Shown: positions 42,374-58,848 of the stretch, piece after piece
How the letters are laid out: each line of letters starts with the position of its first letter
Numbering within the stretch: position 1 is the first letter of the stretch
NCBI GenBank assembly: GCA_046330135.1
Contig: JAXLTI010000003.1
Coordinates: 387,913-451,912, forward strand
Direction of reading: 5' to 3'
DNA length: 64,000 nt
Source: a bacterium
Lineage (GTDB): Bacteria; ARS69
The notes under the pieces: generated by a model
Seen by the model: only the letters and a program-made list of their open reading frames with translations
Told to the model about the DNA's origin: nothing
The model's database searches: none
Translations under genes and position numbers: made by a program

Positions 42374-42470
42374 GACCTCCGTTTGCGCGCCCGGTCCGAT
42401 TCCCCGCGACGAATCCCGCCGTATATTACGGGACCCTGATAGGCCCAACCAGTCGTAGGAGGCCCCCCCG

Positions 42471-43907
42471 ATGTGGAAACCGAGAGAAGCGCTCGTCTGG
42501 CTGCGTGAAGTCTCGCTCGATCCCCTGGGCGGACTCGGCGTCCTGCTCGCCACGCTCGGCGGCGGGCTGTTCGTCTTCTTCGTGGCCCTGAGCCTTCTCG
42601 GTTTCTTCCCGCTGTCGCCTTATCTCGGGATCTTCATCTACCTCGGGTTGCCGATCGTCCTCGTCGTCGGGCTCGCGCTGCTGCCCGTCGCGCACTTCCG
42701 CCTGACGAAGCGCAGCACCGGAGGCCGCCTCCCCACCTTCGACTTCGAGAACCCGCGCCACCTCCGCCGTCTGGGCATCTTCGCCGCCCTCACGGTCGTG
42801 AACGTCGTCATCTTCAGCTTCGCCGGTTACGGCGCCTACCACGTCTCCGAGACGAACGAGTTTTGCGGGAAGCTCTGTCACACCGTGATGAAGCCGGAGT
42901 GGACGGCCTACCAGCTCTCGCCGCACGCGCGCGTGAAGTGCGTGGAGTGCCACATCGGCCCCGGCGCGGATTGGTTCGTGCGCTCGAAGATCTCCGGGGC
43001 GCGCCAGGTGCTGGCGGTGGCCACCGGCCGCTACCATCGCCCCGTGCAGACGCCGATCCACAACCTGCGTCCCGCCCGGGAGACGTGCGAGCAGTGCCAC
43101 TGGCCGGAGAAGTTCCACGGCGACGCCCTGCGCGTCCTGCACCACTTTCAGCCGGACAGCGCGAACACGCCGCTCACGACCGTGCTCCTCCTCAAGGTGC
43201 GGGGCGGCGAGCAGGCTGACGCCGGCGCCGGACACCGCGGCATCCACTGGCACACCAGCCGCGCCACCCGCCTTACTTACGTCGCCACCGACGAGCGCCG
43301 GGAGAAGATCCCGTACGTGCGCCTGCAGCGCGGAAACGGGGCGCCCCTCGAGTTCTTCGCCGGCGATCCGGACAGCGTCAAGGCGCAGATCCAAGGTCAC
43401 GAGCAGCGGGTGATGGACTGCATGGACTGCCACAACCGCCCCACCCACGCCTTCGAGATGCCGGAGGAGGCGGTGGATCACGCGCTCGCGGACGGCCGTC
43501 TCGACCCCTCGATCCCCTGGCTCAGGCGCGAGGCGGTCCGCGTGCTGCGCGAGGACCTCCCCGCCGGCACCGATCCCGTCACGGCGCTCCGAGCGAAGCT
43601 CGACGCGTTCTACGCTCACGACGCCTCCGTGGCCGGCCTCGTGCCGGCGGCCGCGCTGGACGGCGCCGCGAAGGAGCTGAGCGCCATCCGCGGCCGCAAC
43701 GTCTTCCCCGAGATGGCCATCACCTGGGGCACCTACCCCGTCTTCCTGGGCCACCGCAACGACCAGGGCGGCTGCTTCCGCTGCCACGACGGCGAGCACA
43801 CCACGAAGGACGGCGAGACCATCGACAACGACTGCGAGCTCTGCCACAGCCTGATCGCCCAGGACGAGCCGAAGCCGCCGATCCTCACGACGCTCTACCC
43901 GAACTAG
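42471..43907 (+). CDS. Membrane-anchored NapC/NirT-family multihaem cytochrome (3 TM; 5 CxxCH + 1 CX3CH), ImcH-like architecture
   Basis: RBS taggagg. Three N-terminal TM helices are followed by ETNEFCGKLCHTVM. This is the NapC/NirT first-haem context with a one-residue insertion. Then come CVECH, CEQCH, CMDCH, CFRCH and CELCH. Confidence 0.85.
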   Translation: MWKPREALVWLREVSLDPLGGLGVLLATLGGGLFVFFVALSLLGFFPLSPYLGIFIYLGLPIVLVVGLALLPVAHFRLTKRSTGGRLPTFDFENPRHLRRLGIFAALTVVNVVIFSFAGYGAYHVSETNEFCGKLCHTVMKPEWTAYQLSPHARVKCVECHIGPGADWFVRSKISGARQVLAVATGRYHRPVQTPIHNLRPARETCEQCHWPEKFHGDALRVLHHFQPDSANTPLTTVLLLKVRGGEQADAGAGHRGIHWHTSRATRLTYVATDERREKIPYVRLQRGNGAPLEFFAGDPDSVKAQIQGHEQRVMDCMDCHNRPTHAFEMPEEAVDHALADGRLDPSIPWLRREAVRVLREDLPAGTDPVTALRAKLDAFYAHDASVAGLVPAAALDGAAKELSAIRGRNVFPEMAITWGTYPVFLGHRNDQGGCFRCHDGEHTTKDGETIDNDCELCHSLIAQDEPKPPILTTLYPN

Positions 43908-43976
43908 CACGCGCCGCAGGCCGGCTCTTCGTCTGCACCCGGTTCGTGCGTCTCACGTCGGCCGGCCGCGGGCCGC

Positions 43977-44700
43977 GGGCTCGGAGCCGTTTCAGGGTTC
44001 GCCCGTCTCGCCTCGGGGCCGGCCTCTTCGCCCCGGACGGGTCAGCCTCCGCCGTCCCGGCTCCGGCGCCCTCCCGCTCCGGCGGCTCCGCCATCCATGG
44101 CTCCGCCGCCTGCGCGAAGCCGCGTCGAAGAGGCCGGCCCCGAGGCGAGACTGACACCCGGGTCGTGGCGGTCGAGACCTGCCGGCGCCGCGTCGCTCCG
44201 AGGCCCGTCGCGAGTCGGCCGACCACCACGGCGTCCTCGCGGGACGTCCGTGCCGTCGGTGACGCGCGGCCGGTGATCGCGGCCGAGGTCGCGCGATCAC
44301 CCGGCGCGTCGCGCAGACCGCGCGAGGCGAGGCAGGCGTCGGCGGCTCGGTGGCGTGCTTTCGCAGCGGCTTCGCGGAGTCGCCGGAGCCAGGGATGGCG
44401 GAGGCGACGGAGCGGGAGGGCGCCGAAGCCAGGATGGCGTAGGCGACCGTCCGATGCGAAAGCACGACGCCGAGCCGACGGCGCGTTCATCGCGTGCGAT
44501 CACCGCCGACGAACGCCGCGCGAGGCGAGGCACGCGTCGGCGGCTCGGTGGCGTTGCTTCCGCGGCGACTTCGCGGAGGCGGCGCAGCCAGGATGGCGGA
44601 GCCGCCGGAGCGGGAGGGCGGCCGTAGCCCGGACGGCGGAGGCCGCCCGTTCGTCGCGGAAGCAACGCCAGCGAGCCGACGACGCGCTCATCACGTGCAA
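43977..44700. repeat. Palindromic intergenic repeat copy 2 (intact, 43977-44497) plus a ~205-bp tandem duplicate (44498-44700)
   Basis: A perfect 26-bp stem joins 44005-44030 and 44126-44151. A 10-bp hairpin reads ggtgatcgcg...cgcgatcacc (about 44270-44302). The ~80-bp core module gcttcgcggag.cg.cg.agccagg.atggcggag.cg.cggagcgggagggcg occurs 3 times here and 2 more times at 4.3-6.2 kb. The element fills an 823-bp convergent intergenic gap. Confidence 0.8.
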
Positions 44701-44730
44701 CCCCCCGCCGACGCGACGAGCGCCGCGCGG

Positions 44731-45840
44731 CTAGGAGCCGAAGCCGCGCTTCGGGTCCCAGACGCGGCCGTCGTCGTGGCAGCCGGCGCAGGAGGGCGCT
44801 TTGCCGGGGCCGTGACCGTCGACGTGGCAGTCCTTGCAGTCCGCTTCGCGATGGACGTCGTCGAGGACGACGGCGGTGACGGCGTGGTCGAACTTCTTCG
44901 GGTCGAAGCCCTCCGCGTGGCACGACTCGCAGCGCGGATCCAGCTTCGCCGGCGTGGTCCACGGCGGGTGGCACGCGCGGCATCCGAGGTCCTTGTGGTA
45001 CCGCGCGAGCGGCCAACCGGTCGCCTCGTGGGAGAAGAGATCGGTTCCGGCCCGCCCGTGGCAGCTCTTGCAGTCCGCCTGGGGGTGGGACGAGGTCTTC
45101 TCGGCCCGATGGCACCGGAAGCACGCGTCGTGCAGGTTCACCTGCGCGAGGTCCCCCATCGGGTGCGGCTCACGCCCTTGGACGTGACAGCGCTTGCACC
45201 CCTGGTCCTCGTGGCAGACCACGCAGTCGTTCTCGTACCGGGCCGAGTGGTTCTTGTGGTGGAAGGTCACGCTGTCCCCGGCAGCGAACTTCGTCTTGAA
45301 GACGATGACGTCGCGCATCGTGAGCGGCGCGTGGGCCGAGTGGAAGGACTGCGTCGCCGCGGCTTCGCCCTTCTTCGCGTGACAGATCACGCACGAGGTC
45401 TCGCCCTCCCACTCGCGGTGGCAGCCGAGACACTGGCGATGGTACGCGCCCTTGAGATCCGGCTGCTCGAGGTGCTCGCGCGGGACCTCCACCGGATGAC
45501 ACTGGCGGCACGCCGGATGCTCGTTGCCCTGCGGCGTGTGGTGGTGGCAAAGGGTGCAGTTGCCCTGGAATCGCGTCATGCTGCTGTGCGCCTTGTGATC
45601 GAAGCGCACGCCCTCGTACAGCTTGGCCAAGTCGTCCAGCACGACGACGTCGGGACCGCGCGCCGTCCGCGTCGCCTGCGGGCGCGGGCAACTCCTCAGG
45701 CACGGATCCGCCTTCGTGGGCACCTTGCACGAGTGGCACGACGCGCAGTCGCTCCCGTTCTTCTCGCTCGCCCGCGACGTCGGGGGCGCGAGCAGCGCCG
45801 TCCCGGCGAAGAAGGCGACCAGGACCGCGAACCGCCTCAC
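44731..45840 (-). CDS. Periplasmic 13-haem cytochrome c
   Basis: The GTG overlaps the upstream stop (GTGA). Signal VRRFAVLVAFFAGTALLAPP. There are 13 CxxCH in 369 aa: CASCH, CTLCH, CRQCH, CLGCH, CVICH, CVVCH, CKRCH, CFRCH, CKSCH, CRACH, CESCH, CKDCH, CAGCH. Confidence 0.85.
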   Translation of the reverse strand: MRRFAVLVAFFAGTALLAPPTSRASEKNGSDCASCHSCKVPTKADPCLRSCPRPQATRTARGPDVVVLDDLAKLYEGVRFDHKAHSSMTRFQGNCTLCHHHTPQGNEHPACRQCHPVEVPREHLEQPDLKGAYHRQCLGCHREWEGETSCVICHAKKGEAAATQSFHSAHAPLTMRDVIVFKTKFAAGDSVTFHHKNHSARYENDCVVCHEDQGCKRCHVQGREPHPMGDLAQVNLHDACFRCHRAEKTSSHPQADCKSCHGRAGTDLFSHEATGWPLARYHKDLGCRACHPPWTTPAKLDPRCESCHAEGFDPKKFDHAVTAVVLDDVHREADCKDCHVDGHGPGKAPSCAGCHDDGRVWDPKRGFGS

Positions 45841-47948
45841 GACGCTTCCCCGGCGCCCGCCGCCGGGAGCACCGGCAGCCGCGTCACGAGCCAGCGATAG
45901 ACGACGGCGAGCGTCGCGAAGAGGCCCACCGTCACGCCGATCTCGCCGACGCTCGGGAAGTACGGCTTCTGCGCGTACGGCGGAGCGTAGGCCACGAGGA
46001 ACACGTCGATGCGGTTCAGCGCGACCCCGCCGATCACGAGCAGCGCGGCCGCCAGCAGCGCCTGCGGCGACCGTCGCCGGCGCGCGGAAGCGAGGATCAC
46101 GATCGGCGCGAGCAGTCCGAAGAGCATCTCCACGAGGAGAACGCGCGACGCCAGGTCGAAGCGGAAGACGGCACCCCATTGGTCCCGGATCGTCAGGTCC
46201 GCGACCTTCGAGATGAAGTACACGCCCACGAGCACCGGAACGATGCGCGCGAGCCGCTCGAGGAGATGGATCTCCGGCGGCCGCCGGAAGGCGCGCGCCG
46301 ACAGCAGGGACTCGAGGATGACGACGGGGTAGCCCACCATGATCGCCGACAGGAGGAAGAGGAGCGGGAGCACGGGCGTGTACCAGAGCGCGTTCATCTT
46401 GCTGGGAACGACGAGCATCAACGCGCCGAGCGACGACTGGTGCAGGCACGACAGCACCACGCCCGCCACGAGGAGGAACGGCATGAGAGCGCGCAGGACC
46501 CCGTCGGCGCGGGTCAGGACGGTCTCGACGGGCTTCTCGAACGGGCGCAAGGGACCCGGAAGGCGCACTCGACCGCGCAAGCGCTCGATCACGACCGGCA
46601 GGAACTCGAGGTACAGCACGGTCAGATACACCATGACGCACATGCCGACCTCGAAGAGCACGGAGTGCCCGGACCACATCCACGGCATGGCGGGGTGCCA
46701 GAGGCGGTAGGGTCGCCCGAGGTCGACGGCCAGCCCCAGGACCACGAAGGTGTAGCCGAGCAGCGCCGACAGCAGCGCCGGCCGTGCGATGGGCTCGAAG
46801 TCCTCGCGGTGGAAGATGTGCGCGAGCGCGGCGGTGGTGAACCCGCCGGCGGCCAGCGCCACTCCGCCCGCCACGTCGATGGCGATCCAGATCCCCCAGG
46901 GATAACGGTCATCCAGGTGCGTGACGCCGGCGAGACCCAGGACGAAGCGGGCGACCGTGAACACGAACGCCACGACGGCGAGCCCCAGAAGGGTCATCGC
47001 TGCCGGCGTGCGGAAGCTGCCCTGGACCGGGGCGGGCGACGGCGAAGGCGCGTGCGCTTGCGCGCCGCCGTGCTCCTCCCGGCGCCGGAACAGCCAGGAG
47101 ATCCCGTACAGGAGCCCGTAGAGCCCGAGCGGCGGCACGAAGTTCTTGAACACCGCGTGCTGGAGGCGCTCGGTGCGGCGCGGCGGCGCCACGGACGAGA
47201 GCGCCGGGAAGCCGAGCTGATCGAACGGCACGCCGGCCACGTACATCCACGACGTCCCCCCCACCTCGTGCTCGCCGTAGACGTGGTCCACGTAGCGGCC
47301 GGCGTGGGTCTCCCGCTTGCGGCTCGCCAACTCAAGGAGTTGCGAACGCTTGCCGAAAGTGAGGCACTGCGGCGGGCAGATCTCGACACAGGCGGGAACG
47401 GCCGTCGCATCCTCGAGCACTCGATTCGCGCACATGGAGCACTTCCGGACCCGCGGAGTCAGGGGACTCTGGTACTCGTATCCCGGGATCTGGAACGGGC
47501 ACGCGACCATGCAGTACCGGCAGCCGATGCAGCGGCCGGCATCGTAGGTCACCGGTCCCCTCTCGTTCCTCTCCAGCGCCGACACGATGCACGCCGACGC
47601 GCACGCGGGCTCGAGGCAGTGCATGCACTGCACCTTGACCCACGTGGGGTTAGCGGCGCCCTCGGGACGGAACTCGTTCACGACCGTGAAGGCCGACGCG
47701 TCCGGCCGACGCTTTTCGGCGTAGACCGAGCGGGTCTCGAACTCCGGCATCGGCCGGGCGGGCAGGCCCTGCGCCTGGTTGCACGCCCACTCGCACTTCC
47801 GGCAGCCGACGCAGAGCGTCAGGTCGCAGAGGACGCCGAAGCCGTCCGTGGGCGGCGCGGCTTCCTTCGCCTCCGCCGGCGTGGTGCCGGGCGCGGCGGC
47901 CAGGGCGCCGATCGCTCCGCAGGTTCGGAAGAATTCGCGTCGTTCCAT
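45837..47948 (-). CDS. Fusion of a Tat-exported 4x[4Fe-4S] ferredoxin subunit (NrfC/PsrB/HmcB-like) and a polytopic NrfD/PsrC-like quinol-interacting membrane subunit
   Basis: Twin-arginine signal MERREFFRTCGAIGALAAAPG. Cys clusters: CVGCRKCEWAC, CMHCLEPACASAC, CIGCRYCMVACP and CSMCANR...CVEICP. A TM anchor, a short cytoplasmic linker and about 8-10 TM helices follow (...YPWGIWIAIDVAGG...). Confidence 0.85.
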   Translation of the reverse strand: MERREFFRTCGAIGALAAAPGTTPAEAKEAAPPTDGFGVLCDLTLCVGCRKCEWACNQAQGLPARPMPEFETRSVYAEKRRPDASAFTVVNEFRPEGAANPTWVKVQCMHCLEPACASACIVSALERNERGPVTYDAGRCIGCRYCMVACPFQIPGYEYQSPLTPRVRKCSMCANRVLEDATAVPACVEICPPQCLTFGKRSQLLELASRKRETHAGRYVDHVYGEHEVGGTSWMYVAGVPFDQLGFPALSSVAPPRRTERLQHAVFKNFVPPLGLYGLLYGISWLFRRREEHGGAQAHAPSPSPAPVQGSFRTPAAMTLLGLAVVAFVFTVARFVLGLAGVTHLDDRYPWGIWIAIDVAGGVALAAGGFTTAALAHIFHREDFEPIARPALLSALLGYTFVVLGLAVDLGRPYRLWHPAMPWMWSGHSVLFEVGMCVMVYLTVLYLEFLPVVIERLRGRVRLPGPLRPFEKPVETVLTRADGVLRALMPFLLVAGVVLSCLHQSSLGALMLVVPSKMNALWYTPVLPLLFLLSAIMVGYPVVILESLLSARAFRRPPEIHLLERLARIVPVLVGVYFISKVADLTIRDQWGAVFRFDLASRVLLVEMLFGLLAPIVILASARRRRSPQALLAAALLVIGGVALNRIDVFLVAYAPPYAQKPYFPSVGEIGVTVGLFATLAVVYRWLVTRLPVLPAAGAGEAS

Positions 47949-48113: not shown

Positions 48114-48142
48114 TTGAAAGTGATTCTCAGGTCCACTATTAT
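48114..48142 (+). promoter_or_regulatory. Near-consensus sigma-70-type promoter upstream of the NHL/cytochrome operon
   Basis: TTGAAA (48114-48119), a 17-nt spacer, then TATTAT (48137-48142). It lies in the most AT-rich stretch of the window, about 50 nt upstream of the ATG at 48195. Confidence 0.4.
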
Positions 48143-48194: not shown

Positions 48195-49202
48195 ATGCGC
48201 AGCTGGATTCAGGCCGGAGTCGTCGCAGCTTGGGGGGTGGGAGCAGGCACTGCTCACGCTCTGTCACCCCGGATCGACCACGTCGACGCGACCATCAACG
48301 GTCCCTCGGCCTTCGACAGCTTCCGCCGTCCCGCCTCGCTGGCCGTCTCCCAGGACGGCCGGCTGTTCCTCGTGGGGGACACCGGCAACCACCGCATCGT
48401 GGTCTTCGACCAGTCCGGAAGGTGCCGCGGGGCCTTCCCGCTCTCTCCCTCGGACCCCGCCTCGGCCGGCGTCGAGCCGCAGTCCCTGGCCCTCGACTCC
48501 CGCGGCCGGATCTACGTGGTGGACGGTCTGGACCACCTCCTCACCGTGCTCAGCGCCCGCGGCGCCTTCGTCGCGTCGCAGACGGTGCCCACCGAGCTCG
48601 CGCCGCAGGGCGGCGAGTGGGTGCGCTCGGTGGCGGTGGCGCCGAGTGGACGGATCTACGTGCTCCACACCGGCCCGGCCGCCGGGCTCTTCAGCGAGCT
48701 CCCCGGCGGCCGCGCCAGCACGGCGCACGACATTCGCTCGGGTCTCAAGTCCCTCGTCGCGCCGGTGGCGGTGGCGGTGAGCGCGGACGAGACCCAGGTG
48801 GCGGTGCTCGATCCGGAAGCGCGGACTCAAGTGCAGGTCCGTGCGCTCGACGGGACGCTGCTGGCGTCCTTCGGACGGCACGGAGAGGGCGAAGGAACGA
48901 TGTCCCTGGCGGTGCACGTGACCTGGGGACCTTCCGACACGCTGTGGATCACGGACACTCTTCGTCACTTCATTCACGTCTTCGATGCGCACGGGGCTTA
49001 TCTCGGGCGCGTCGGCGGCTTCGGCTCTTCACCCGGGCAGCTTTCGTATCCGGTGGCCTGCGGGTTCCTCGAGGACGGTCGTCTCGTGGTTCTCGAACGC
49101 GCCGGACGCTGCCAGATCCTGGAGGTGACTCTCTCGGACTCTACGAATGGGACGCTCTCCGGAGCGTCTGTGCGTCGCTCGGCCCCAACGGTCCTGTCAT
49201 GA
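48195..49202 (+). CDS. Secreted NHL-repeat beta-propeller protein
   Basis: RBS gaggaagg. Signal MRSWIQAGVVAAWGVGAGTAHA. Repeated NHL-type blades: RPASLAVSQDGRLFLVGDTGNHRIVVFD, PQSLALDSRGRIYVVDGLDHLLTVL, ...LWITDTLRHFIHVFD, LSYPVACGFLEDGRLVVLERAGRCQIL. Confidence 0.8.
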   Translation: MRSWIQAGVVAAWGVGAGTAHALSPRIDHVDATINGPSAFDSFRRPASLAVSQDGRLFLVGDTGNHRIVVFDQSGRCRGAFPLSPSDPASAGVEPQSLALDSRGRIYVVDGLDHLLTVLSARGAFVASQTVPTELAPQGGEWVRSVAVAPSGRIYVLHTGPAAGLFSELPGGRASTAHDIRSGLKSLVAPVAVAVSADETQVAVLDPEARTQVQVRALDGTLLASFGRHGEGEGTMSLAVHVTWGPSDTLWITDTLRHFIHVFDAHGAYLGRVGGFGSSPGQLSYPVACGFLEDGRLVVLERAGRCQILEVTLSDSTNGTLSGASVRRSAPTVLS

Positions 49203-49215
49203 TGGAGGTGTAGCA

Positions 49216-50253
49216 ATGTCGGTCAAGAAGTCCCTCGCCCTGGCCGGCGTACTCGCGTTGTTGGCTCTGCCGGCATACGCAGGCGACTACCATAAGGGCG
49301 TCAACCTGGTCTGCTCCGACTGCCACGTGATGCACTACAGCCAGCAGCACGGCTACAACCCGAACGGCGGCGGCATCTACACGCCGCTCGCGAACGGGCC
49401 GGTCACGTTCCTGCTGCGCAACGACGTGAACGACCTCTGCTTGAGCTGCCACGACGGGCAGTCCTTCGCGCCGGACGTCCTCGGGGCGCACGGCAACGGG
49501 TACATCCGTCAGGCCGGCGGGCTCAACGAAGTGGGCTCCACCGGTCCGTACTTCGAAGCGGACGGCCACACGCTCGGCTCCACGGATACGGCTCCGGGCA
49601 GCAACCCCGCCTGGAACAACGCCTCCGGCCTCGAGTGCGTGGATTGCCACGCTCCGCACGGCCGAACGAGCTCCGGCGTCACGAACGGCTACCGGAACCT
49701 CTACCCGAACAGCATCACGTACTCGCGCGGTGACGTGGACGGCAGCAATGACCTCACCAAGTGGGTTTACGAAGATGTGTCGTCGGGCGTGTCCGCGAGC
49801 CACTACGGCTACGACCACCTGACGTTCAACGAGCCCGTCACCACGGCCTCGCAGTACGCGACGTTCTGCAAGGGCTGCCACACGAACTTCCACGGCGACG
49901 TGGGCGGTCCGGAAATCGGCGGCTCGGGCACGCCTCCGATCGACTTCGTCCGTCACCCGGCCGCCACCGTCAACATCGGCGCGGCGGGCGCGGGTCACTC
50001 GAGCCTGACGCAGTTCGTCGGGCACACGAACCAGATGCAGGTCATGTCCCCCACCGGCAAGCGTGCCGGCACGTTCGACGCGACCGACACGGGTCTCACG
50101 CCGTCGTGCTTCTCCTGCCACAAGGGGCATGGCAACCAGAACGCGTTCGGGCTCATCTACCTGTCCGGCACGGGCACGGTCACGGAGGAAGGCGACGATC
50201 CGACGCCGACCTACCGCGAGATGTGCCGTCAGTGCCACACGATGGGCAGCTGA
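49216..50253 (+). CDS. Secreted hexahaem cytochrome c, OmcS-like (family call from memory-based alignment)
   Basis: RBS gatggagg. Signal ...LALPAYA. Six CxxCH: CSDCH, CLSCH, CVDCH, CKGCH, CFSCH, CRQCH. The contexts are collinear with G. sulfurreducens OmcS as I recall it. Ours YHKGVNLVCSDCHVMHYS matches OmcS FHSGGVAECEGCHTMHNS. Ours FCKGCHTNFH...RHPA matches OmcS WCANCHTDIH...RHPA. The last haem lies within the final ~10 residues. The protein is rich in Gly, Thr, Ser and Asn and is loop-rich. Confidence 0.8.
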   Translation: MSVKKSLALAGVLALLALPAYAGDYHKGVNLVCSDCHVMHYSQQHGYNPNGGGIYTPLANGPVTFLLRNDVNDLCLSCHDGQSFAPDVLGAHGNGYIRQAGGLNEVGSTGPYFEADGHTLGSTDTAPGSNPAWNNASGLECVDCHAPHGRTSSGVTNGYRNLYPNSITYSRGDVDGSNDLTKWVYEDVSSGVSASHYGYDHLTFNEPVTTASQYATFCKGCHTNFHGDVGGPEIGGSGTPPIDFVRHPAATVNIGAAGAGHSSLTQFVGHTNQMQVMSPTGKRAGTFDATDTGLTPSCFSCHKGHGNQNAFGLIYLSGTGTVTEEGDDPTPTYREMCRQCHTMGS

Positions 50254-50279
50254 TCGCGTAGTCTGACCGACTCCGTCTC

Positions 50280-50309
50280 GGGCCCGGCGAACCGGCCTCC
50301 GCCGGGCCC
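50280..50309 (+). promoter_or_regulatory. Strong intercistronic stem-loop after the OmcS-like gene (no U-tract)
   Basis: gggcccggcg-aaccggcctc-cgccgggccc: a perfect 10-bp GC stem, 27 nt after the stop, inside a 112-bp gap within an otherwise tightly packed operon. Confidence 0.4.
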
Positions 50310-50365
50310 TGACGGGGCTCCTCTCCGCGACCCGAGTCGTCCCCGAGGCCGCTAGGGACGTCCGC

Positions 50366-51517
50366 GTGAGAAGTCGAGTGGTGGTGGCGGTGGCGGCGGG
50401 CTGCGCCCTCGTGCCGGCAGTGCCGTCCAGCGATCCCCTTCCGGACCCGCACGGCGATGCGTCCTCCGGCGTGCTGCGCGAAGCGACGCAGCCGTCCACG
50501 CAGGGCGCCTGCGTCCAGTGCCATCCCGCGCACGGCGTCGACGCCGGCACGGCGAAGCCCATCCTCCTCTTCACCGACAACACGAACGAGCTCGCGTTCT
50601 TCTCTCAGGGCGCCGCCGCTTGCCACGCGAACCTGCCGCTGAACTACCCGCTCGCCGAGAGCGACCGCCTCCCCGAAGGACAGCCGGACGCCGGCTACTT
50701 CGAGGCGAACGACGGAGGCACTCGGCGCGTCGGCGTCGAGTGGCGCGGGCGCTGGCCCGGCCGCCAGACGTACACGGACGGTCGCGTCGTCGGGAACGGG
50801 CACTTCGTGTCGCCGCACGCGCTCGACCCCGACATGCCGCGCAAGGATCTCCTGGGCGAAGGGCTCTGCTTCAACTGCCACGATCCGCACCCCACGCAGA
50901 ACCCCTTCGATCTCCTCGTCCACGAGTACCGATCGATCGGCGGCGCCTCCTCCCTGGGTCCGCCCCAGGAGTACGAGCTGTGCTTCTCGTGCCACGGCCA
51001 CGGCGGCCCGGCGGGGATGGATGTGGAGAACACGCGCATCGAGGACTTCTACGACAACTCCCTCAACGGACTGACGGCGGGGCACGCCATCCGTCGCAAC
51101 CCGAACGTCGCGATCTCGTGGCCGAGCTCCGTGCGGCAGGGCGACATGCTGTCCTGCTCGGACTGTCACGACGCGCACGGCTCCCGCGGGAACGACGGCG
51201 TGAGCCCCAACGCCTTCGTGCTGAGCGACGAGCGAACGGGCTGGAGCGGGCTCACCGACACGCAAAACGACCCCACGCAGTGCCGCCGCTTCTGCTTCGG
51301 CTGCCACATCCCTTCGGACGGTATCGCCGGGACCCAGACGGTGCGCGGCATCGTGATGAACACCCTGACCGACCAGGCCGGCGTGCACGCCTCCACGAAC
51401 GGCCAGAGCTGCTACGACTGCCACGGGCGGGACTACGGATCGGCCACCGGCTTCAACGTCCACCACCCGGATCCCGCCGGCGGAGTCCCCGACCCGTTCG
51501 GCCGGCAGCGGGGCTGA
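50366..51517 (+). CDS. Hexahaem cytochrome c, probable lipoprotein
   Basis: GTG start. MRSRVVVAVAAGC carries a short signal and a possible lipobox. Six CxxCH: CVQCH, CFNCH, CFSCH, CSDCH, CFGCH, CYDCH. Confidence 0.8.
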   Translation: MRSRVVVAVAAGCALVPAVPSSDPLPDPHGDASSGVLREATQPSTQGACVQCHPAHGVDAGTAKPILLFTDNTNELAFFSQGAAACHANLPLNYPLAESDRLPEGQPDAGYFEANDGGTRRVGVEWRGRWPGRQTYTDGRVVGNGHFVSPHALDPDMPRKDLLGEGLCFNCHDPHPTQNPFDLLVHEYRSIGGASSLGPPQEYELCFSCHGHGGPAGMDVENTRIEDFYDNSLNGLTAGHAIRRNPNVAISWPSSVRQGDMLSCSDCHDAHGSRGNDGVSPNAFVLSDERTGWSGLTDTQNDPTQCRRFCFGCHIPSDGIAGTQTVRGIVMNTLTDQAGVHASTNGQSCYDCHGRDYGSATGFNVHHPDPAGGVPDPFGRQRG

Positions 51518-51523
51518 TCGATC

Positions 51524-53146
51524 ATGCGGGGTGCGCGCCACGCCCGCTCCTGGCGGCGTTCGAGCCCTTGGGCGCTCGGCGGGATCCTCGGCGCACTCGC
51601 GCTCGCGAGCCCCGCGGTGGCGATCGACGGCCGCTACCTGGGCACGTACCAGGAGACGAACGGAGGCGACGACTTCCGCGCGTTCGAGCACCGCACCGAC
51701 CTCGAGGGCCGACGTCTCCTCGCCCCCGGCGTGGACGGCCTGTTCGGGGCGTCGCTCCGCTACACGACCGAGCCCGGGGTGGACAACGCCGACCTGCTCC
51801 GCAGCCGTCTCTTCGGCGAGGCGCGCGGAGCGGCCTGGCGGTTCCACGGACAGTGGCTGCCCTGGCAGGACCAAGCGCCCGGCCCCACGCCGCCGCGCCA
51901 GCGGGAGCTGGAGCTCGGAGGCGACGCTCGGCTGCTCGGGGGAGCGAACCTGGCTGCGGATTGGACGCGATCCGACCACGACTTCGTCGAAGGCGTCTCC
52001 TCCTCGGACAGCAAGCGGATCCAGGTCGCGCGCGAGTGGAACGACGTCCGGACGAGCGCCTCGTGGCGGCGCATCGAGACGGAGCCGTCCGCGTTCTCGA
52101 TCGCGGCACCCACGAGGACCACCGAGTGGCGTGGAGCGGCCGGGTGGCAGCGATCCTCGCGCACGGTCTCCCTCTCCCTCGACTCGGACGCGCTCATGAG
52201 CCGTTACACCGAACGCGAGCGGAAGCGAGACTTCCACGCGGAGACCGTGGAGAGCGAGGCCGGCTGGCGCATCGGGCGTCGCACCTCCGTGGGCGCGTCG
52301 GGGCTCTTCCGCACCGGAGCGACGGACGACAACGCCCTTCCCTCCATCCAGGACCTCGACGAGCGCGCGGTCTCCCTCCACGCCGAGCACCATCCCTTCC
52401 AGTGCCTCGTCTTCGAGGGCAGCCGGGAGTACCGCAAGCGCCAGGACTTCAACGGCGACGTGCACACGGACTACTTCCGGCTCGGAACCCGCTTCTCGCG
52501 AGAGGTCGTCCGCGCGACGACGCTCCTGTCGGGCTACCAGCATTCCGTGGAGGTCGGCGGGAACGGCGACGAGGTTCCGAACAACGACGCTTGGGTGACC
52601 CTCGAGTCCCGGGTCCGGCGGGGCGTCGTCGCCCGCGCCGACGTGCGCACGCAGGACCCGCCCGCCGGCGACGAGAACCGTCTTTGGCGGTACCTCGGCC
52701 AGGTGACGCTGGATCCCACACCCAACACGAAGCTCGACGTCGCGTGGACCCGCCAGGTCCTGCCCCGGATCGACGGCCTCGCCCAGCACGACGGCGACTG
52801 GACCTTCACGGGGTCCTGGAATCCGGGCCGGGCGAGCCTCGTGTCGTCGTTGCGCGTTCTCCGCGGGGTTGGCAGAATCGACCGCTCGGAAAAGACCTGG
52901 ACGCTCGCCACCAGCGTCCCTCTCCCTCGTGGAGGCGACGTGCATTTCGACGCTCTCCACCGCGACAACGAGTCCGCCGGCATCGCCAGCGTGGAGAACA
53001 CGTGGGGCGTGGCCATGACCGCGCAGTTGCCGCAGGAGGCGCGTTTGATGGGTGCGTTTCGTCGCACCGCGAGGACCGATCGGCCGCGCGTTCTCAGCGG
53101 CACGGTCACATTGGAGCTCAAATTCGGAATGGGAGGACGGTCATGA
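51524..53146 (+). CDS. Putative outer-membrane beta-barrel (porin-like) protein
   Basis: 540 aa with signal ...LALASPAVA and no Cys-haem motifs. Long runs of alternating polar and aromatic residues are punctuated by G/D/N turns (e.g. AWRFHGQWLPW, TEWRGAAGWQRSS, TKLDVAWTRQV, DWTFTGSWNPG). It ends ...TVTLELKFGMGGRS. Confidence 0.6.
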   Translation: MRGARHARSWRRSSPWALGGILGALALASPAVAIDGRYLGTYQETNGGDDFRAFEHRTDLEGRRLLAPGVDGLFGASLRYTTEPGVDNADLLRSRLFGEARGAAWRFHGQWLPWQDQAPGPTPPRQRELELGGDARLLGGANLAADWTRSDHDFVEGVSSSDSKRIQVAREWNDVRTSASWRRIETEPSAFSIAAPTRTTEWRGAAGWQRSSRTVSLSLDSDALMSRYTERERKRDFHAETVESEAGWRIGRRTSVGASGLFRTGATDDNALPSIQDLDERAVSLHAEHHPFQCLVFEGSREYRKRQDFNGDVHTDYFRLGTRFSREVVRATTLLSGYQHSVEVGGNGDEVPNNDAWVTLESRVRRGVVARADVRTQDPPAGDENRLWRYLGQVTLDPTPNTKLDVAWTRQVLPRIDGLAQHDGDWTFTGSWNPGRASLVSSLRVLRGVGRIDRSEKTWTLATSVPLPRGGDVHFDALHRDNESAGIASVENTWGVAMTAQLPQEARLMGAFRRTARTDRPRVLSGTVTLELKFGMGGRS

Positions 53147-53715
53147 CGCAGCCACGCCGAAGGGGGTTCTTGGTGGCGCTCGGCACGATCGTCCTCGGCG
53201 GCTGCGCCAGCCCCGCGAAGTTCCTCGATCCCCAGGCGGACCTGGGCTACTACGAGCGCGTGGCCGTCCTCCCCTTCTCGTCCCTGGCGGCCGACCGCGT
53301 GGCGGGCGACAAGGTCGCCAGCGTCTTCTTCACCGAGCTCCTCGAGTCCCACGTTGCGGCGGCGGTCGATCCCGGCCAGCTCGCTGCGGCCATGGTGCAG
53401 GCGCGCGGCGGCACGCCTCCCACGACCCCTTGGTCGGCGGCGGAGCTCGCGAAGCTCGCGGAGTCGGTGAAGGCGCAGGGCATGTTCGAGGGCGTCGTGC
53501 GCGAGTACTCCCTCGAGCGGTCCGGGCGGGACTCCTTCCCCCTGGTCTCGCTCGAGCTGCGCCTCGTCGACCCGGGAAGCGGCCGGGTGATCTGGACCTG
53601 GAGCGACACGCGACGCGGCGGGCCGGCGTTCCCCCTGTGGCCGTGGCGCGAGACTCGAACCCTGGGCGAGCTCACCGCGGACATGTGCCGCGACGCGCTC
53701 GCGACGTTGCGTTGA
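53143..53715 (+). CDS. Lipoprotein, LpoB/CsgG/TolB-N-like fold candidate (paralog 1)
   Basis: The ATG overlaps the upstream stop (ATGA). Lipobox IVLGGC. YYERVAVLPFSSLA is followed by the amphipathic ...VASVFFTELLES. Confidence 0.6.
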   Translation: MTQPRRRGFLVALGTIVLGGCASPAKFLDPQADLGYYERVAVLPFSSLAADRVAGDKVASVFFTELLESHVAAAVDPGQLAAAMVQARGGTPPTTPWSAAELAKLAESVKAQGMFEGVVREYSLERSGRDSFPLVSLELRLVDPGSGRVIWTWSDTRRGGPAFPLWPWRETRTLGELTADMCRDALATLR

Positions 53716-53726
53716 GGGGGGCCGAC

Positions 53727-54353
53727 GTGGCGCGGTGGAGCATCCTCGTGGGGCTCGCGATCTCGGGCGCGACGGCCGGCTGCGCCAGCCCCGTGCCGCA
53801 CGCCTTCGAGGGACCGGGGCTGCCGGAAGGCGCCCGCGTGGCCATCCTCCCGCTCGTCAACTACACCACCAGCCGCGACGCCCCGGATCGGGTCACGCCC
53901 GCGCTCGGCGTCGCTCTGCGGACGCGCAAGCACCTCGACGTGGTGGACCCGGGCATCGTGGAGCAGGCGCTCGCCACGAACCCGTGGCTCTCGCCCGAGC
54001 GGATGCCTCCGGACGTCGTGGACAGCCTCGGCGTCGCCACCGGGGCGAACGCGCTCCTCGTGGGGAGTGTGCTCGCGTACGGGTACCGCGCGGGCGAGGC
54101 GCCGCAGGTTCCGGAGGTCTCGTTCGCCGTGAAGGTCGTGGAGACGCCGGGCGGCCGATGCCTCTGGAGCGCCGTGTTCTCGCGCGACGGCGCGGACCGC
54201 GAGCGCGTCTTCGGCATCGGCCGGATCGAGAGCCTCGAGAAGCTCGCCGACGAGGCCATCACGGAGCTCGTCGATACCCTCCCCGTGAGGTCGCGCACCG
54301 CCGCCGACGTCGCGGCGCCGACAGCCACCCCTGCGGAAGGAACGTCCCGATGA
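53727..54353 (+). CDS. Lipoprotein, LpoB/CsgG/TolB-N-like fold candidate (paralog 2)
   Basis: GTG 53727 follows gagggggg. Lipobox ATAGC. ARVAILPLVNYTTSRDAPDRVTPALGVAL and ...ALLVGSVLAYGY are present. It has the same architecture as the preceding gene. Confidence 0.6.
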   Translation: MARWSILVGLAISGATAGCASPVPHAFEGPGLPEGARVAILPLVNYTTSRDAPDRVTPALGVALRTRKHLDVVDPGIVEQALATNPWLSPERMPPDVVDSLGVATGANALLVGSVLAYGYRAGEAPQVPEVSFAVKVVETPGGRCLWSAVFSRDGADRERVFGIGRIESLEKLADEAITELVDTLPVRSRTAADVAAPTATPAEGTSR

Positions 54354-54964
54354 AGCGCGCCCGCCTCGCCACGCTCGCCGCCCTGTCGGCACTCGTCGCC
54401 GCCGCCGCCCTGGCGGGGCCGAGCGCGGATTCCGCCCCCTCGCCTCCGGACTCCACGAAGGTCGCGGGCTCCCCACCTGCCGCGCCGTCCACGACCCCGT
54501 CGTCTGCGGGCCCGTCGTCCGCGACCGCTGCGTCCACGGGCCCCTTTCGCGTTCGCATCGGGAGCCGGCTCTATCCGGACTGGTCCGAGGAGCGCGTGAT
54601 CGGCCTCGACGAGCCGTTCTATCTGGGGGACACGGACCTCAGGGCAACGGCGAAGCGGCACCTCCAGGACTTCAAGATCAAGAACGGCGTGGTGTACGAG
54701 GCCTCGAAGGAGCCGAACAACCCGGCGCTCTTCATCGTCGTGACTCGCGACACCTCCATCGTGGACAGCACCTGGGCTTTCCGGAACTTCCCGCCTCATG
54801 CGTCGCCCACGTCGTTCTTCACCTTCCAGCTCCTGGACCTCGCGGACTCCTCCAAAGCCACGAGCCGAGCCGCGCCGTCCGGGTCGGGCGCCGGGAAGGC
54901 CAAGGCGAAGCACCCGCACGCCGTCGCGGACTCCGCGAAGGCGAAGAAGGGCGAGGGGAGCTGA
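54350..54964 (+). CDS. Secreted protein of unknown function (low-complexity N-terminus, ~110-aa globular core, Lys/Ala-rich tail)
   Basis: The ATG overlaps the upstream stop (ATGA). Signal MKRARLATLAALSALVAAAALA. I recognise no family. Confidence 0.55.
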   Translation: MKRARLATLAALSALVAAAALAGPSADSAPSPPDSTKVAGSPPAAPSTTPSSAGPSSATAASTGPFRVRIGSRLYPDWSEERVIGLDEPFYLGDTDLRATAKRHLQDFKIKNGVVYEASKEPNNPALFIVVTRDTSIVDSTWAFRNFPPHASPTSFFTFQLLDLADSSKATSRAAPSGSGAGKAKAKHPHAVADSAKAKKGEGS

Positions 54965-54965
54965 C

Positions 54966-57900
54966 GTGACACGCTCGCGGGTCGTCGCTCTCGGTCTCGT
55001 CGTCGCGGCGGTCGCGACGTGGCTCGCCTTCACGCTGGGCGACCGCCCGGCGCTCGCCGCCCCGGAGCAGCCGCGGGCCCGCCCGTGCTACGACTGCCAC
55101 CAGCCGGCGAAGCAGAAGTTCGAGAAGGCGTCCTTCGTCCACGCGCCCGTGGCGAAGCAGGACTGCGAGGCGTGTCACAAGCGGCACGGCTTCGCACAGT
55201 CCCTGGTGCTGGCGCGCGACTTCCCCGCGCTGTGCGTGGAGTGCCACAAGGACGTCGTGAAGTCGCCCACCGCGGGCTCCTCGCACCTGGACATCAAGGG
55301 CACGAACTGCATCTCGTGCCACGACCCGCACGCTTCGAACACGAAGGGGCTGCTGCGCGGGACGCTCATCGAGACGTGCGCGTCTTGCCATCCGCGCCTC
55401 GCCGTGTCCGTCGAGTCCAGGAAGCCGCACGCGCCCTTCAAGGAAGGTCGCTGCGAAGCGTGCCATTCGTTCCACGACGCGGCCAAGCCGGGCCTCTTGA
55501 TCGCGGACGAGAAGGAGTTGTGCGCCCGCTGCCACGGAGACGCATCGAAGTTGCCGGATCTTCATGCGCGACCGGAGGTGGCGGGCGCCGCCTGCACGTC
55601 TTGCCACGATCCCCACGGCGAGCCGCCGGCCGAGCGCGGGCAGTTCATCCACCAGCCGTACGCGGCCGCGAAGTGCGACGCGTGCCATACGAAGCTGCCC
55701 GGCGACCCCGCGGCCCTGGTCGCTCCGGCGGAGCAGCTCTGCCTCACCTGCCACACGAAGACCAAGACGGATCTCACGAAGAGCACCACCCATCCACCCG
55801 CGGCGCAGGGGAAGTGTCTCCAGTGCCACGATCCGCACCGCTCCGATCTGCCGCGCCTCGTGCGCGGGAAGGCGGACGAGCTGTGCGGCGTCTGCCACGC
55901 TCCGCAGCGCGAGCAGATGAAGCTCGCGAGCGTTCATGCGCCGTTCGCCATCCAGGACTGCACGGCCTGCCACAACCCCCACGCGAGCGACCAGGCGAAG
56001 CTCCTGCAGAAGCCCCCCGAGGCGCTGTGCCGGGAGTGTCATCAGGCCGTGGTGGCCGCCGCGGACTCCGCCGCCGTTCCGCACCCCGCGATGGACGGGG
56101 ACTGCCTTGCGTGCCACGCGCCGCACGCGTCGAAGCGCGAGCCGCTGCTCGCAGGACCGCCGGACTCGCTCTGCTTCTCGTGCCACGAGGAAGTCGAGGC
56201 GGAGCGCTCCCGCCCCGTCGTTCACGAGCCGTTCCAGGGCGGCGAGTGCGTCTCCTGCCACGCCCCGCACGGCTCCGCGCACGCCGCGATCCTCCGCGAG
56301 GAGGACCCGAAGCTCTGCCTCCAGTGCCACCGCGCGCAGGCGGACGACCGCCGCAAGGCGAACGTCCACAAGCCGTTCGCGGAGGAGCGCTGCGAGAAGT
56401 GCCATGCGCCGCACGCGTCGGCCACGCCGGCGCTCCTCGTGAAGCCGCAGGGGGAGCTCTGCGCCCAGTGCCACGCCGCCGTCGCCACGGCACAGCCCGC
56501 GGCGGAGCTCCATCCGCCGGTCGCGAAGGGCCAGTGCAGCGCGTGCCATTCCCCGCACGCCTCCGACAGCGCGGGTCCGCTCCTCAAGACGCAGCCCCCG
56601 GATCTCTGCTGGAGCTGCCACTCGGATCTTCGCGACCGCCTGGAGGGCGCGAAGGTCCACAAGCCGGTCGCCGAAGGGCAGTGCAACACCTGCCACGACG
56701 GCCACCACGTCCGCGGCCCCGACGGGAAGGTCGCGCTCCTCAAGACGTGCACGTCGTGTCACGACCCGGCATCGGAGAAGCTGCGCGCGGCGCACGACGA
56801 CTTCCGCCCCGACGATGCGGCCTGCCTCTCGTGTCACGATCCCCACGGATCGACCGAGAAGGGGCTGCTGCGCCCCGTGCGCCACGAGCCGTTCGGCAAG
56901 GGCTCCTGCACCACGTGCCACGAGCCGCCGGCGCCCGGACGCAAGCCCGTGCTCGTGGAGCAGGTGCCCGCCCTCTGCGAGACGTGTCACGACCCGATCA
57001 AGGCCGGCCCGGGCCGGGAGCTTCACCCTCCCGTGGAGGCCGGGGAGTGCGTGGACTGCCACGCGCCGCACACGGCGTCGGCGCCTTATCTGGCGAAGGC
57101 GGAAGGGAAGGCGCTCTGCCTCACCTGCCACGACGACCCCACGGCGGGCCCCGACAGCACGCTCGTGCACGCGCCCGCACGGGCGGGGCTTTGCCTCACG
57201 TGCCATGGCGCGCACGAAGGCACCTCGCCCGGACTCCTGAAGACGGGCGGCGTGGCGCTGTGCGCATCCTGTCACGCCGACGTGGCGAAGCGCGCGCAGG
57301 GGCCGAACGCGCACGCTCCGGCCCGCGAGGGCCGTTGCACGGAGTGTCACGACCCGCATCAGGGCAAGCAGCGCGGGCTCCTCAAGGCGGCCATGCCGGA
57401 GCTCTGCGTGCGCTGCCACGACCTGACGAAGCCGGCCATCGTCGCCGCCCACGGCGGACGCCCGGTCACGGGCGGGCACTGCATCGATTGCCACGACCCG
57501 CACGGAACCGGAAAGAAGGGGCTCGTCTACCCGAGCGCGCACCAGCCCTACGCCCAGGGCAAGTGCGACTCCTGCCACAATCCGGGCTCCAATACGCTGA
57601 AGGCGGAAGGGGCGGCGCTCTGCGTGACCTGTCACGGCGACCACGCCGGCGACGCCACGCTGGCCGCGCCGCACGCCGCGGTCACTCAGGGGAGCGCTTG
57701 CCTCTCCTGCCACAGCCCGCATGCCGGGAGGACCGCGACGCTGCTGCGCCGGGACAGCCCTGCCGCGATGTGCTTCGCGTGCCACGACCGGTCGAAGTTC
57801 GAAGGCAAGGTCCGGCACAAGGTCGTCGACGACTGCACGACCTGCCACGCGCCGCACGGGAGCGCCAACGAGGGCCTGCTCCTCGAGCCGCAGGCGGAGC

Positions 57901-58118
57901 TGTGCGCCAGCTGCCACGACGCGGAGAAGACCCACGCCCACGTCACCGGGGCCCCGGCGATCGATCCGCGAACGGGGAAGACGCTCCGGTGCACGTCCTG
58001 CCACTCACCGCACGCGTCGGACCACGAAAGCTTGCTCAGGCAAGAAAAAGAGAGGAAGCTCTGCATTCAGTGCCACGTAGGACCCGATCTCGATGTGCCG
58101 ACGAGGGGGCCTCGCTGA
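54966..58118 (+). CDS. Giant multihaem cytochrome c with 42 CxxCH motifs (doubled-CXXCH / c7-polymer-like repeats)
   Basis: GTG 54966 lies 1 nt after the upstream stop. N-terminal signal/anchor VTRSRVVALGLVVAAVATWLAF. I counted 42 CxxCH by hand in 1050 aa. They are organised as roughly 48-aa dihaem units H-x-P-[FV]-x3-4-C-x2-CH-x-PH-x-S-x5-LL-x6-8-LC-x2-CH. Confidence 0.9.
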   Translation: MTRSRVVALGLVVAAVATWLAFTLGDRPALAAPEQPRARPCYDCHQPAKQKFEKASFVHAPVAKQDCEACHKRHGFAQSLVLARDFPALCVECHKDVVKSPTAGSSHLDIKGTNCISCHDPHASNTKGLLRGTLIETCASCHPRLAVSVESRKPHAPFKEGRCEACHSFHDAAKPGLLIADEKELCARCHGDASKLPDLHARPEVAGAACTSCHDPHGEPPAERGQFIHQPYAAAKCDACHTKLPGDPAALVAPAEQLCLTCHTKTKTDLTKSTTHPPAAQGKCLQCHDPHRSDLPRLVRGKADELCGVCHAPQREQMKLASVHAPFAIQDCTACHNPHASDQAKLLQKPPEALCRECHQAVVAAADSAAVPHPAMDGDCLACHAPHASKREPLLAGPPDSLCFSCHEEVEAERSRPVVHEPFQGGECVSCHAPHGSAHAAILREEDPKLCLQCHRAQADDRRKANVHKPFAEERCEKCHAPHASATPALLVKPQGELCAQCHAAVATAQPAAELHPPVAKGQCSACHSPHASDSAGPLLKTQPPDLCWSCHSDLRDRLEGAKVHKPVAEGQCNTCHDGHHVRGPDGKVALLKTCTSCHDPASEKLRAAHDDFRPDDAACLSCHDPHGSTEKGLLRPVRHEPFGKGSCTTCHEPPAPGRKPVLVEQVPALCETCHDPIKAGPGRELHPPVEAGECVDCHAPHTASAPYLAKAEGKALCLTCHDDPTAGPDSTLVHAPARAGLCLTCHGAHEGTSPGLLKTGGVALCASCHADVAKRAQGPNAHAPAREGRCTECHDPHQGKQRGLLKAAMPELCVRCHDLTKPAIVAAHGGRPVTGGHCIDCHDPHGTGKKGLVYPSAHQPYAQGKCDSCHNPGSNTLKAEGAALCVTCHGDHAGDATLAAPHAAVTQGSACLSCHSPHAGRTATLLRRDSPAAMCFACHDRSKFEGKVRHKVVDDCTTCHAPHGSANEGLLLEPQAELCASCHDAEKTHAHVTGAPAIDPRTGKTLRCTSCHSPHASDHESLLRQEKERKLCIQCHVGPDLDVPTRGPR

Positions 58119-58191
58119 CCTTCGAGCGGGAACGGCCTGCCCCAGGCCGGTGTTGGAGTGGGGAGTCAGGGATATCGGGAAGGAGGATTCG

Positions 58192-58848
58192 ATGAGAGCT
58201 TCGATCATCTCCGTCGCGGCAGCCGTGTTCGTGTTCACGGCGGCCACGGTCCATGCGCAGGCCGCGCAGAGCGCACCCGCCAAGCCGGCGACGCCCGCGG
58301 CCCAGACGGCTCCGGCCGCCGCGGCGAGCCCGGCGACTCCGGCAGCCGGTGAGGGCCCCGGCAAGTACGTCGGCGTGGCGAAGTGCAAGATGTGCCACAA
58401 GAAGGCGGAAGACGGCGACCAGTACGACGTGTGGCTCAAGAGCGGCCACGCGAAGGCGTTCGCCACCCTCGCCAGCGAGAAGGCGAAGGCCGAGGCGACG
58501 AAGGAAGGCATCGCGGATCCTCAGAAGGACCCGAAGTGCCTGAAGTGCCACACGACCGCGGCCATGGTGGCGGACCCCGCTACCGAGAAGGTCACGATGG
58601 AAGAGGGCGTCTCTTGCGAGAGCTGCCACGGCGCGGGAAGCGGCTACTACAAGAAGAAGGTGATGGAGGATCTCCGGGCGGGCAAGGTGGACGCCAAGAC
58701 CGTCGGCTTCGTGAAGCCCACGAAGGAGACGTGCGTGAAGTGCCACACGGCGGAAGGCAACGCCTTCTTCAAGCCGTTCGTGTTCGAGGAGCGCGTGAAG
58801 GTGATCGCGCACCCGATCCCGAAGAAGGCTGCTCCGGCCGCCGGCTAG
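58192..58848 (+). CDS. Periplasmic tetrahaem cytochrome c, cytochrome c554-like family
   Basis: RBS gaaggagga. A signal peptide is followed by an Ala/Pro-rich linker. Four CxxCH: CKMCH, CLKCH, CESCH, CVKCH. The family-typical context is KYVGVAKCKMCHKK...YDVWLKSGHAKAF. Confidence 0.85.
   Translation: MRASIISVAAAVFVFTAATVHAQAAQSAPAKPATPAAQTAPAAAASPATPAAGEGPGKYVGVAKCKMCHKKAEDGDQYDVWLKSGHAKAFATLASEKAKAEATKEGIADPQKDPKCLKCHTTAAMVADPATEKVTMEEGVSCESCHGAGSGYYKKKVMEDLRAGKVDAKTVGFVKPTKETCVKCHTAEGNAFFKPFVFEERVKVIAHPIPKKAAPAAG

Follow-up and report, generated by a model that had tools for sequence, protein, structure and literature searches.

A reduced osc-type gene cluster encoding a distant relative of OmcS, a candidate filament-forming cytochrome, in an uncultured bacterium outside Desulfuromonadota

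We analysed a 64-kb stretch of DNA (64,000 nucleotides of contig JAXLTI010000003.1, assembly GCA_046330135.1, referred to here as the window), in which a gene on the plus strand (49216..50253) codes for a secreted hexahaem c-type cytochrome of 345 amino acids (aa). Judging from sequence comparison, this protein is a distant but genuine relative of OmcS, the cytochrome nanowire subunit of Geobacter sulfurreducens, and the operon to which it belongs (48195-58848) is a compact, divergent and reduced version of the Geobacter osc (omcS-companion) cluster, GSU2505-GSU2493, described in bioRxiv 10.1101/2025.11.06.686851 and in the account that PMC13194489 gives of Shen et al. 2025. The putative subunit and five of its companions are homologous to parts of the Geobacter system, the 12 predicted haem-ligand histidines of OmcS are conserved and the module is kept over many phyla. 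We therefore consider, with moderate confidence, that the 345-aa protein is a head-to-tail filament subunit like OmcS, a possibility raised by the first-pass annotation of the window which is better founded now because the 12 histidines are retained and because the operon also contains OscE/F/G and OscI/J homologues. That annotation had regarded the cytochrome and the NHL-repeat gene preceding it as a two-gene unit, which proved too narrow, since the actual unit is the whole 10.7-kb operon of nine plus-strand genes.

The 345-aa protein carries a Sec-type signal peptide with a predicted cleavage site at AYA|GDYH, as read from its sequence, no lipobox or anchor, and exactly six CxxCH motifs, at C33, C75, C141, C218, C298 and C337. 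Every OmcS fragment quoted in the first-pass annotation is contained in the mature OmcS sequence (chain A of PDB 6EF8, 407 residues), and all statements of the annotation on the sequence hold: the six motifs are collinear with those of OmcS, their local contexts correspond and the last one stands at the C-terminus, ending four residues before it in the window protein and two in OmcS. In a single BLASTP comparison with OmcS, haem motifs 1-5 were collinear at 24% identity over 379 columns (E 2e-7), and against the Geobacter OmcS precursor residues 3-341 aligned with residues 5-431, covering all six motifs; identity between the two proteins lies at 23-24%. The homology is significant, yet in the PDB it became visible only with profiles. 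The single 345-aa sequence gave no OmcS match at E≤10 when searched against the PDB with phmmer, and the profile of the family (32 members) retrieved OmcS (6EF8) as the sole significant chain (E 3.5e-7). Comparison by hhalign with a profile of 34 OmcS-family sequences yielded a probability of 99.5% and an E value of 2.8e-23 over 274 columns spanning haem motifs 1-5, and this alignment takes in non-motif positions such as RHPA, PHG and GH(T/N). Over the 146 sequences of the combined window-family and OmcS-family alignment the six motif Cys and His columns are invariant or nearly so. Furthermore, Geobacter OmcS directly matched 43 of the 80 related loci that we compared (tblastn, E<1e-5; the best 80 of 216 relatives found in a scan with one genome per species), and therefore intermediates link both groups.

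The histidines outside the motifs bear on the question of polymerisation. In the OmcS filament solved by cryo-EM, 12 histidines act as axial ligands, 11 of them in cis and one, on haem 5, coming from the neighbouring subunit (PMC6584659; also PMC9473688). The OmcS family has exactly 12 invariant histidines, which are the six of the motifs plus H2, H16, H110, H147, H257 and H335 (mature numbering), and because this count equals that of the histidine ligands in PMC6584659 the six non-motif ones were taken as ligands, an assignment made from the count. H26, H40, H118, H148, H247 and H305 of the window protein align with these six by hhalign, and all 12 invariant histidines of the OmcS family align with histidines that are invariant in the window's family. 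The histidine three residues past the first CxxCH (CH-V-M-H), to which the first-pass annotation had drawn attention, is H40; it is present in 32 of the 32 family members, and its column is invariant in 146 of the 146 sequences of the combined alignment. We take H40 to be the equivalent of His16 of OmcS, which Wang and colleagues reportedly identified in 2019 as the trans ligand, and hence a putative ligand of haem 5 in the neighbouring subunit. As haem 5 lacks a cis distal ligand in the OmcS fold and H40 is invariant, a monomer would be expected to leave one haem five-coordinate and one invariant histidine unemployed. The donor histidine is likewise kept in the unproven paralogues OmcT and OscC.

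The residues most conserved in the subunit are 31-50, the donor arm with H40, and 301-320, just past the haem-5 motif. In an AlphaFold model of the monomer, the predicted local distance difference test (pLDDT) score was 37-57 in the blocks covering 21-70, 52-62 in 301-320 and 85-94 over 171-300. The location of the conserved segments within low-confidence stretches of the monomer model would fit, if weakly, contacts that are made in trans. A first AlphaFold2 model, built on the 32-sequence alignment, reached a pLDDT of 39 and was discarded as unusable.

The companions of the cytochrome were compared with the Geobacter locus (L081 and L083), where the gene order is NHL-like gene, omcS, omcT, oscB, oscC, oscD, oscE, oscF, oscG, oscH, oscI, oscJ, NHL gene; the window is collinear with it, as NHL, OmcS-like cytochrome, OscE, OscF, OscG, OscI and OscJ. 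The OscE homologue, here called U540 (51524..53146, plus strand, 540 aa), is a putative outer-membrane barrel with no Pfam or NCBIfam match. A BLASTP comparison with OscE was negative (E 0.23) and the homology surfaced only with family profiles: the U540 family, built from 49 orthologues recovered from related loci, aligned with the OscE family at 99.5% and E 3.3e-22 over 518 columns (hhalign). The U540 orthologues mostly have an aromatic C-terminus of the outer-membrane-protein (OMP) type and PF13505 (OMP_b-brl) is present in two OscE homologues, whereas an insert of ~190 aa found in Geobacter OscE is missing from the window protein. The next gene (Lipo1; 53143..53715, plus strand) codes for an LpoB/GNA1162-like lipoprotein of 190 aa with the lipobox LGGC and is an OscF homologue, with 37% identity to Geobacter OscF over 154 aa (BLASTP, E 4e-26) and 147 bits with the family hidden Markov model (HMM). 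It is followed by an OscG-like lipoprotein of 208 aa with the lipobox TAGC (Lipo2; 53727..54353, plus strand), whose family HMM scored 177 bits against OscG and 126 bits against OscF and which matched OscG residues 188-384 in BLASTP (E 1.7e-4). This match covers the C-terminal domain only, and the window protein is half as long as Geobacter OscG.

Further downstream, a gene with a GTG start (54966..58118, plus strand) codes for a 1050-aa cytochrome with 42 CxxCH motifs, in which residues 22-654 align with residues 22-655 of OscI (32%, E 8e-103; 26 haems) and residues 672-1039 with residues 42-421 of OscJ (36%, E 3e-59; 16 haems). Two proteins that are separate in Geobacter are thus fused in order in the window, 26 and 16 haems adding up to 42, which is among the larger counts in one bacterial polypeptide. 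The roles proposed for the Geobacter proteins, according to PMC13194489 with reference to Shen et al. 2025, are secretion of OmcS wires for OscE, OscF and OscG, subunit folding for OscH and wire shaping for OscD; the same source lists OscI and OscJ as periplasmic in Geobacter. OscB (spermine-synthase-like), OscD (a YncE-type propeller with one CxxCH) and OscH (a peptidyl-prolyl isomerase) of Geobacter are missing from the window: OscH had no tblastn match in the 64 kb, although it could lie elsewhere in the genome, and no homologue of OscD or OscB was found there. Conversely, two window genes, MHC2 and S204, are without a Geobacter counterpart.

The first gene of the operon (48195..49202, plus strand) encodes a secreted NHL-repeat beta-propeller of 335 aa (Pfam NHL, E 1.5e-15) and ends 13 bp upstream of the cytochrome gene. 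The linkage of NHL and omcS genes in Geobacter, which the first-pass annotation had mentioned, is real. The Geobacter gene directly upstream of omcS carries an NHL/6-bladed-propeller signature (NHL 20.7 bits, DUF5128, SGL) and was the best match there of the window NHL family HMM, with 112 bits as compared with 86 bits for the NHL gene that closes the osc cluster and only 29 bits for OscD. The companion was also said to be conserved, and indeed in 73 of the 80 related loci it immediately precedes the cytochrome gene in the same orientation. Geobacter OscD (8532-9980 of L083) is a propeller of the YncE/lactonase type with its single CxxCH near the N-terminus; unlike it, the window NHL propeller has no haem motif. 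The NHL gene that appears in two Geobacter transcriptome papers is an unrelated one, GSU0989.

The module recurs in at least 64 of the 80 loci, all of which come from metagenome-assembled genomes and belong to Eisenbacteria, where the closest named relatives are found and from which the window therefore probably comes, as well as Krumholzibacteriota, Zixibacteria, Gemmatimonadota, Latescibacterota, Ignavibacteria, Acidobacteriota, Armatimonadota, Planctomycetota and others. OscF-like genes were present in 67 loci, OscG-like genes in 64 and an OscIJ-like giant cytochrome in 64, and two fixed gene orders were recognized. The loci with OscD or OscH belong to Acidobacteriota, Planctomycetota and a deltaproteobacterium. 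A short OmcS-like gene occurs together with OscD and OscH homologues in six loci (L023, L035, L037, L041, L048 and L080), which seem to stand midway between a cluster of the Geobacter type and the compact one. At 50% identity the family as a whole falls into 795 clusters with E≤1e-3, and 193 of these reach E≤1e-30. The osc cluster has reportedly been called "widespread and ancient" by Shen and colleagues in Cell Chem Biol in 2025.

The gene that follows the subunit gene, MHC2 (50366..51517, plus strand), encodes a second secreted multihaem cytochrome of 383 aa with six CxxCH by motif count, and in 65 of the 80 loci it either adjoins the subunit gene or lies elsewhere in the cluster, which makes it a putative periplasmic or base cytochrome of the system. 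Comparison with the OmcS families gave two short local matches only (50 and 41 columns), and MHC2 is a tentative candidate at most for a diverged OscC/OmcS paralogue. A natural fusion connects the two neighbours in another way. P0463, a metagenomic protein of 1879 aa from outside the window, has an OmcS-like module (10-325) directly joined to an MHC2 module (327-922), then further haem motifs, which bring the total to 24 CxxCH, and a C-terminal F5/8 type C domain. In terms of sequence this is a Rosetta-stone link between the two adjacent cytochromes of the window, and it speaks for an end-to-end contact between the OmcS-like unit and MHC2; P0463 itself may represent a base unit, or else it may favour the conduit alternative discussed below. 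As a separate observation, MHC2 orthologues (L002-L080) show at residues ~70-89 a haem-type motif of variable spacing, CX2-8CH (mostly CX8CH), after a conserved LF(T/A)xNxN. In the MHC2 of the window and of its eight closest relatives (L003-L008, L010 and L012) Ala replaces the first Cys (LAFFSQGAAACH), suggesting single-thioether attachment or loss of that haem.

Taken as parts of one system, these proteins suggest the following scheme, in which surface export, polymerisation and the path and direction of the electrons are what we infer. The 345-aa protein would be exported by the Sec route and would receive its six c-type haems in the periplasm. The OscE-like barrel and the two OscF/OscG-like lipoproteins would form a complex in the outer membrane, and through or at this complex the protein would be passed to the surface. 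There it would polymerise head to tail, H40 supplying the missing axial ligand to haem 5 of the neighbouring subunit, and the haem chain would be continuous from subunit to subunit. The electron source would be quinol-oxidising complexes of the inner membrane, whose genes lie next to the operon; from these the 42-haem OscI-OscJ fusion would carry electrons over the periplasm to the filament, which they may enter via MHC2 at its base, and the NHL propeller may act as a tightly linked periplasmic or surface helper. The flow could run in either direction, for reduction of external acceptors or for uptake.

Several points weigh against a filament and have to be set beside this evidence. The only proven wire is OmcS itself, whereas OmcT, OmcJ and GSU2501/OscC share its motifs and have no known function, and specialists caution against naming nanowires from homology, which has misled annotation before (bioRxiv 10.1101/2025.11.06.686851). 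The window protein is equally near OscC and OmcS (43.5 and 42.7 bits in BLASTP, respectively). In contrast to OmcS, the window family has an additional, seventh invariant non-motif histidine, H226, which could in principle stand in for the trans ligand. OscH, OscD and OscB are missing from the window and from most related loci, where they were found in 5, 6 and 0 of 80, respectively. Lastly, the fusion in P0463 implies that at least that member of the family is not a free repeating subunit.

The alternative that survives best, although we consider it rather unlikely, is that the 345-aa protein is a non-polymerising OmcS paralogue, that is, a monomeric or terminal surface cytochrome of a porin-cytochrome conduit such as MtrCAB or Geobacter Pcc, with no long filament. 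The OscE-like barrel would then hold MHC2 inside it or have it below, and the OmcS-like protein would sit outside. The operon does offer a triad-like set of secreted cytochrome, second cytochrome and barrel, and the natural OmcS-like::MHC2 fusion, the OmcS paralogues with no demonstrated wires, the extra invariant H226 and the absence of the chaperone OscH are all in line with such a conduit. It is opposed by the lack of a cis distal ligand on haem 5 in the OmcS fold, together with the complete conservation of the trans-donor histidine, and by the companions, which are homologous to the osc set and not to Mtr or Pcc components. It appears improbable that the protein is a soluble electron carrier which merely has a common origin with OmcS and stays in the periplasm throughout. 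Its signal peptide and the lack of a lipobox or anchor would suit such a carrier, but in many phyla its gene is tightly linked to those of an outer-membrane barrel and of lipoproteins related to the components that are proposed to secrete OmcS, and the operon already encodes a 42-haem protein of the OscIJ type, whose Geobacter counterparts are periplasmic according to PMC13194489. A chance resemblance arising from the CxxCH line-up of any six-haem protein, for which the low identity and the phmmer search that missed OmcS might speak, is refuted by the profile-profile score with its non-motif positions, by OmcS being the sole significant PDB match though other multihaem cytochromes are in the PDB, one of which, 6qvm, came up solely as a non-significant fold match, and by five neighbouring genes that are independently homologous and in the same order as in Geobacter.

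Building on the filament reading, we put forward tentatively, and with more doubt than confidence, that the compact module is a self-sufficient minimal nanowire machine which works without OscH, OscD and OscB, MHC2 being a base adaptor on the haem-6 end of the first subunit, a role suggested by the natural OmcS-like::MHC2 fusion. The NHL propeller, OscE/F/G and OscI/J, which are kept over evolutionary distance, would be the best candidates for an indispensable assembly core, and OscB, OscD and OscH, which are lost, would likely be accessory. If this is true, the comparison would define the true core of the assembly system, and wire-based extracellular electron transfer would be common to at least ten largely uncultured soil and sediment phyla. 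More generally, if the proteins polymerise, conductive cytochrome filaments would be no speciality of Geobacter and its relatives but would be encoded as well by Eisenbacteria, Krumholzibacteriota, Zixibacteria, Gemmatimonadota, Ignavibacteria, Latescibacterota, Acidobacteriota and others, phyla with few or no cultured members whose role in iron, manganese and humic redox processes has been guessed from genomes.

With respect to the layout of the operon, the gaps between its nine genes range from -4 to 13 bp, apart from two wider ones, of 112 bp between the second and third genes and of 73 bp between the eighth and ninth. A sigma-70-like promoter candidate (TTGAAA-17-TATTAT; 48114..48142, plus strand) lies 52 bp ahead of the NHL gene, in the divergent spacer, which is richer in AT. 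It has 10 of 12 consensus matches, three such sites being present in 11.7 kb as against 0.1 expected from shuffles, and its function as a promoter is putative, being a consensus match. The 112-bp spacer, the only sizeable one of the operon, contains a GC-rich hairpin with a perfect 10-bp stem and no U tract (50280..50309, plus strand), 27 nt past the cytochrome stop codon. This hairpin is part of the minimum free energy fold, but the evidence for it is weak, since the fold of the entire spacer is not unusual (z-score -1.4); as a guess, it could serve as a partial terminator or mRNA stabiliser. A long spacer with a GC hairpin right after a subunit gene would fit polymerisation, as a weaker hint.

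Two genes of the operon stand apart from the parts discussed so far. S204 (54350..54964, plus strand), a small secreted protein of 204 aa, consists of a Pro/Ser/Ala-rich linker and a conserved C-terminal domain of ~130 aa. It is conserved in 41 of the 80 loci, in arrangement A only, and showed no family match and no similarity to any Osc protein. As it occupies the same position as Geobacter OscH, it was considered as a replacement for this protein, a candidate rejected for want of similarity. The last gene of the same-strand run (58192..58848, plus strand) codes for a tetrahaem c554-like cytochrome (Pfam Cytochrome_C554, E 5e-17; four CxxCH), which is probably accessory since it was found in only 12 of the 80 loci.

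Upstream of the operon, the window contains a set of genes that, from their domain content, we propose to be a quinol-oxidising electron input (40472-47948). According to Pfam matches and haem counts, these are a CbcL-like fusion of a multihaem c and a dihaem b cytochrome with 11 CxxCH (~40472-42370, minus strand), a NapC/NirT-type cytochrome (42471-43907, plus strand), a 13-haem c3-type cytochrome (~44731-45840, minus strand) and a 703-aa fusion of 4Fe-4S and NrfD domains (45837-47948, minus strand). Their linkage to the nanowire module is loose, with the NapC-like gene in 9 and the FeS-NrfD gene in 2 of the 80 loci. The remaining genes of the window are ordinary chromosomal ones (carbamoyl-phosphate synthase, aconitase, citrate lyase and a TonB-dependent receptor), and G+C content is ~70% throughout.

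The occurrence of such a protein outside Geobacter, which the first-pass annotation had pointed out, is no longer new in itself. Earlier reports already describe OmcS homologues and the osc cluster as widespread (Shen et al. 2025, to the extent that PMC13194489 cites it; PMC10954620), with OmcS homologues in Geoalkalibacter and Anaeromyxobacter (PMC10954620) and in a Coriobacteriales genome (PMC7399161), and OmcS-type genes were noted in Krumholzibacteria by HMM annotation in 2021 (PMC7914226). In view of these reports, the window locus adds a divergent member to a system that is already known and was recently described, and it carries that system into new phyla. Possibly novel features are its compact architecture, the fusion of OscI with OscJ, the presence of MHC2 and S204, and how strong the linkage of the NHL gene is in uncultured phyla.

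Among known systems, the porin-cytochrome conduits (MtrCAB of Shewanella; Pcc/Ext of Geobacter) are alike in having a barrel gene beside periplasmic and surface multihaem cytochromes, but the barrel of the window is OscE-like instead, and searches with Mtr/Pcc families gave no match above cut-off, the scores of Pfam MtrC/MtrF_II-IV and of the NCBIfam decahaem families being far below it. The OmcE nanowire clusters of Desulfuromonadia (bioRxiv 10.1101/2025.10.22.684050) follow the same part logic, with a subunit, one or more beta-propellers, multihaem cytochromes and a large outer-membrane barrel; OmcE, however, is a tetrahaem cytochrome with no sequence similarity to OmcS, and no homology of these clusters to the window locus was seen. 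OmcS itself (GSU2504 of G. sulfurreducens; PDB 6EF8, 6NEF) belongs to a host within Desulfuromonadota, whereas the window comes from an uncultured bacterium outside this phylum, and the mature window protein is ~85 residues shorter (323 versus 407 aa), with deletions mostly between haems 3 and 4 and between haems 5 and 6. The two proteins are nevertheless alike in the order of their six CxxCH motifs with the last at the extreme C-terminus, in a histidine very near the mature N-terminus and in the NHL gene that lies directly upstream.

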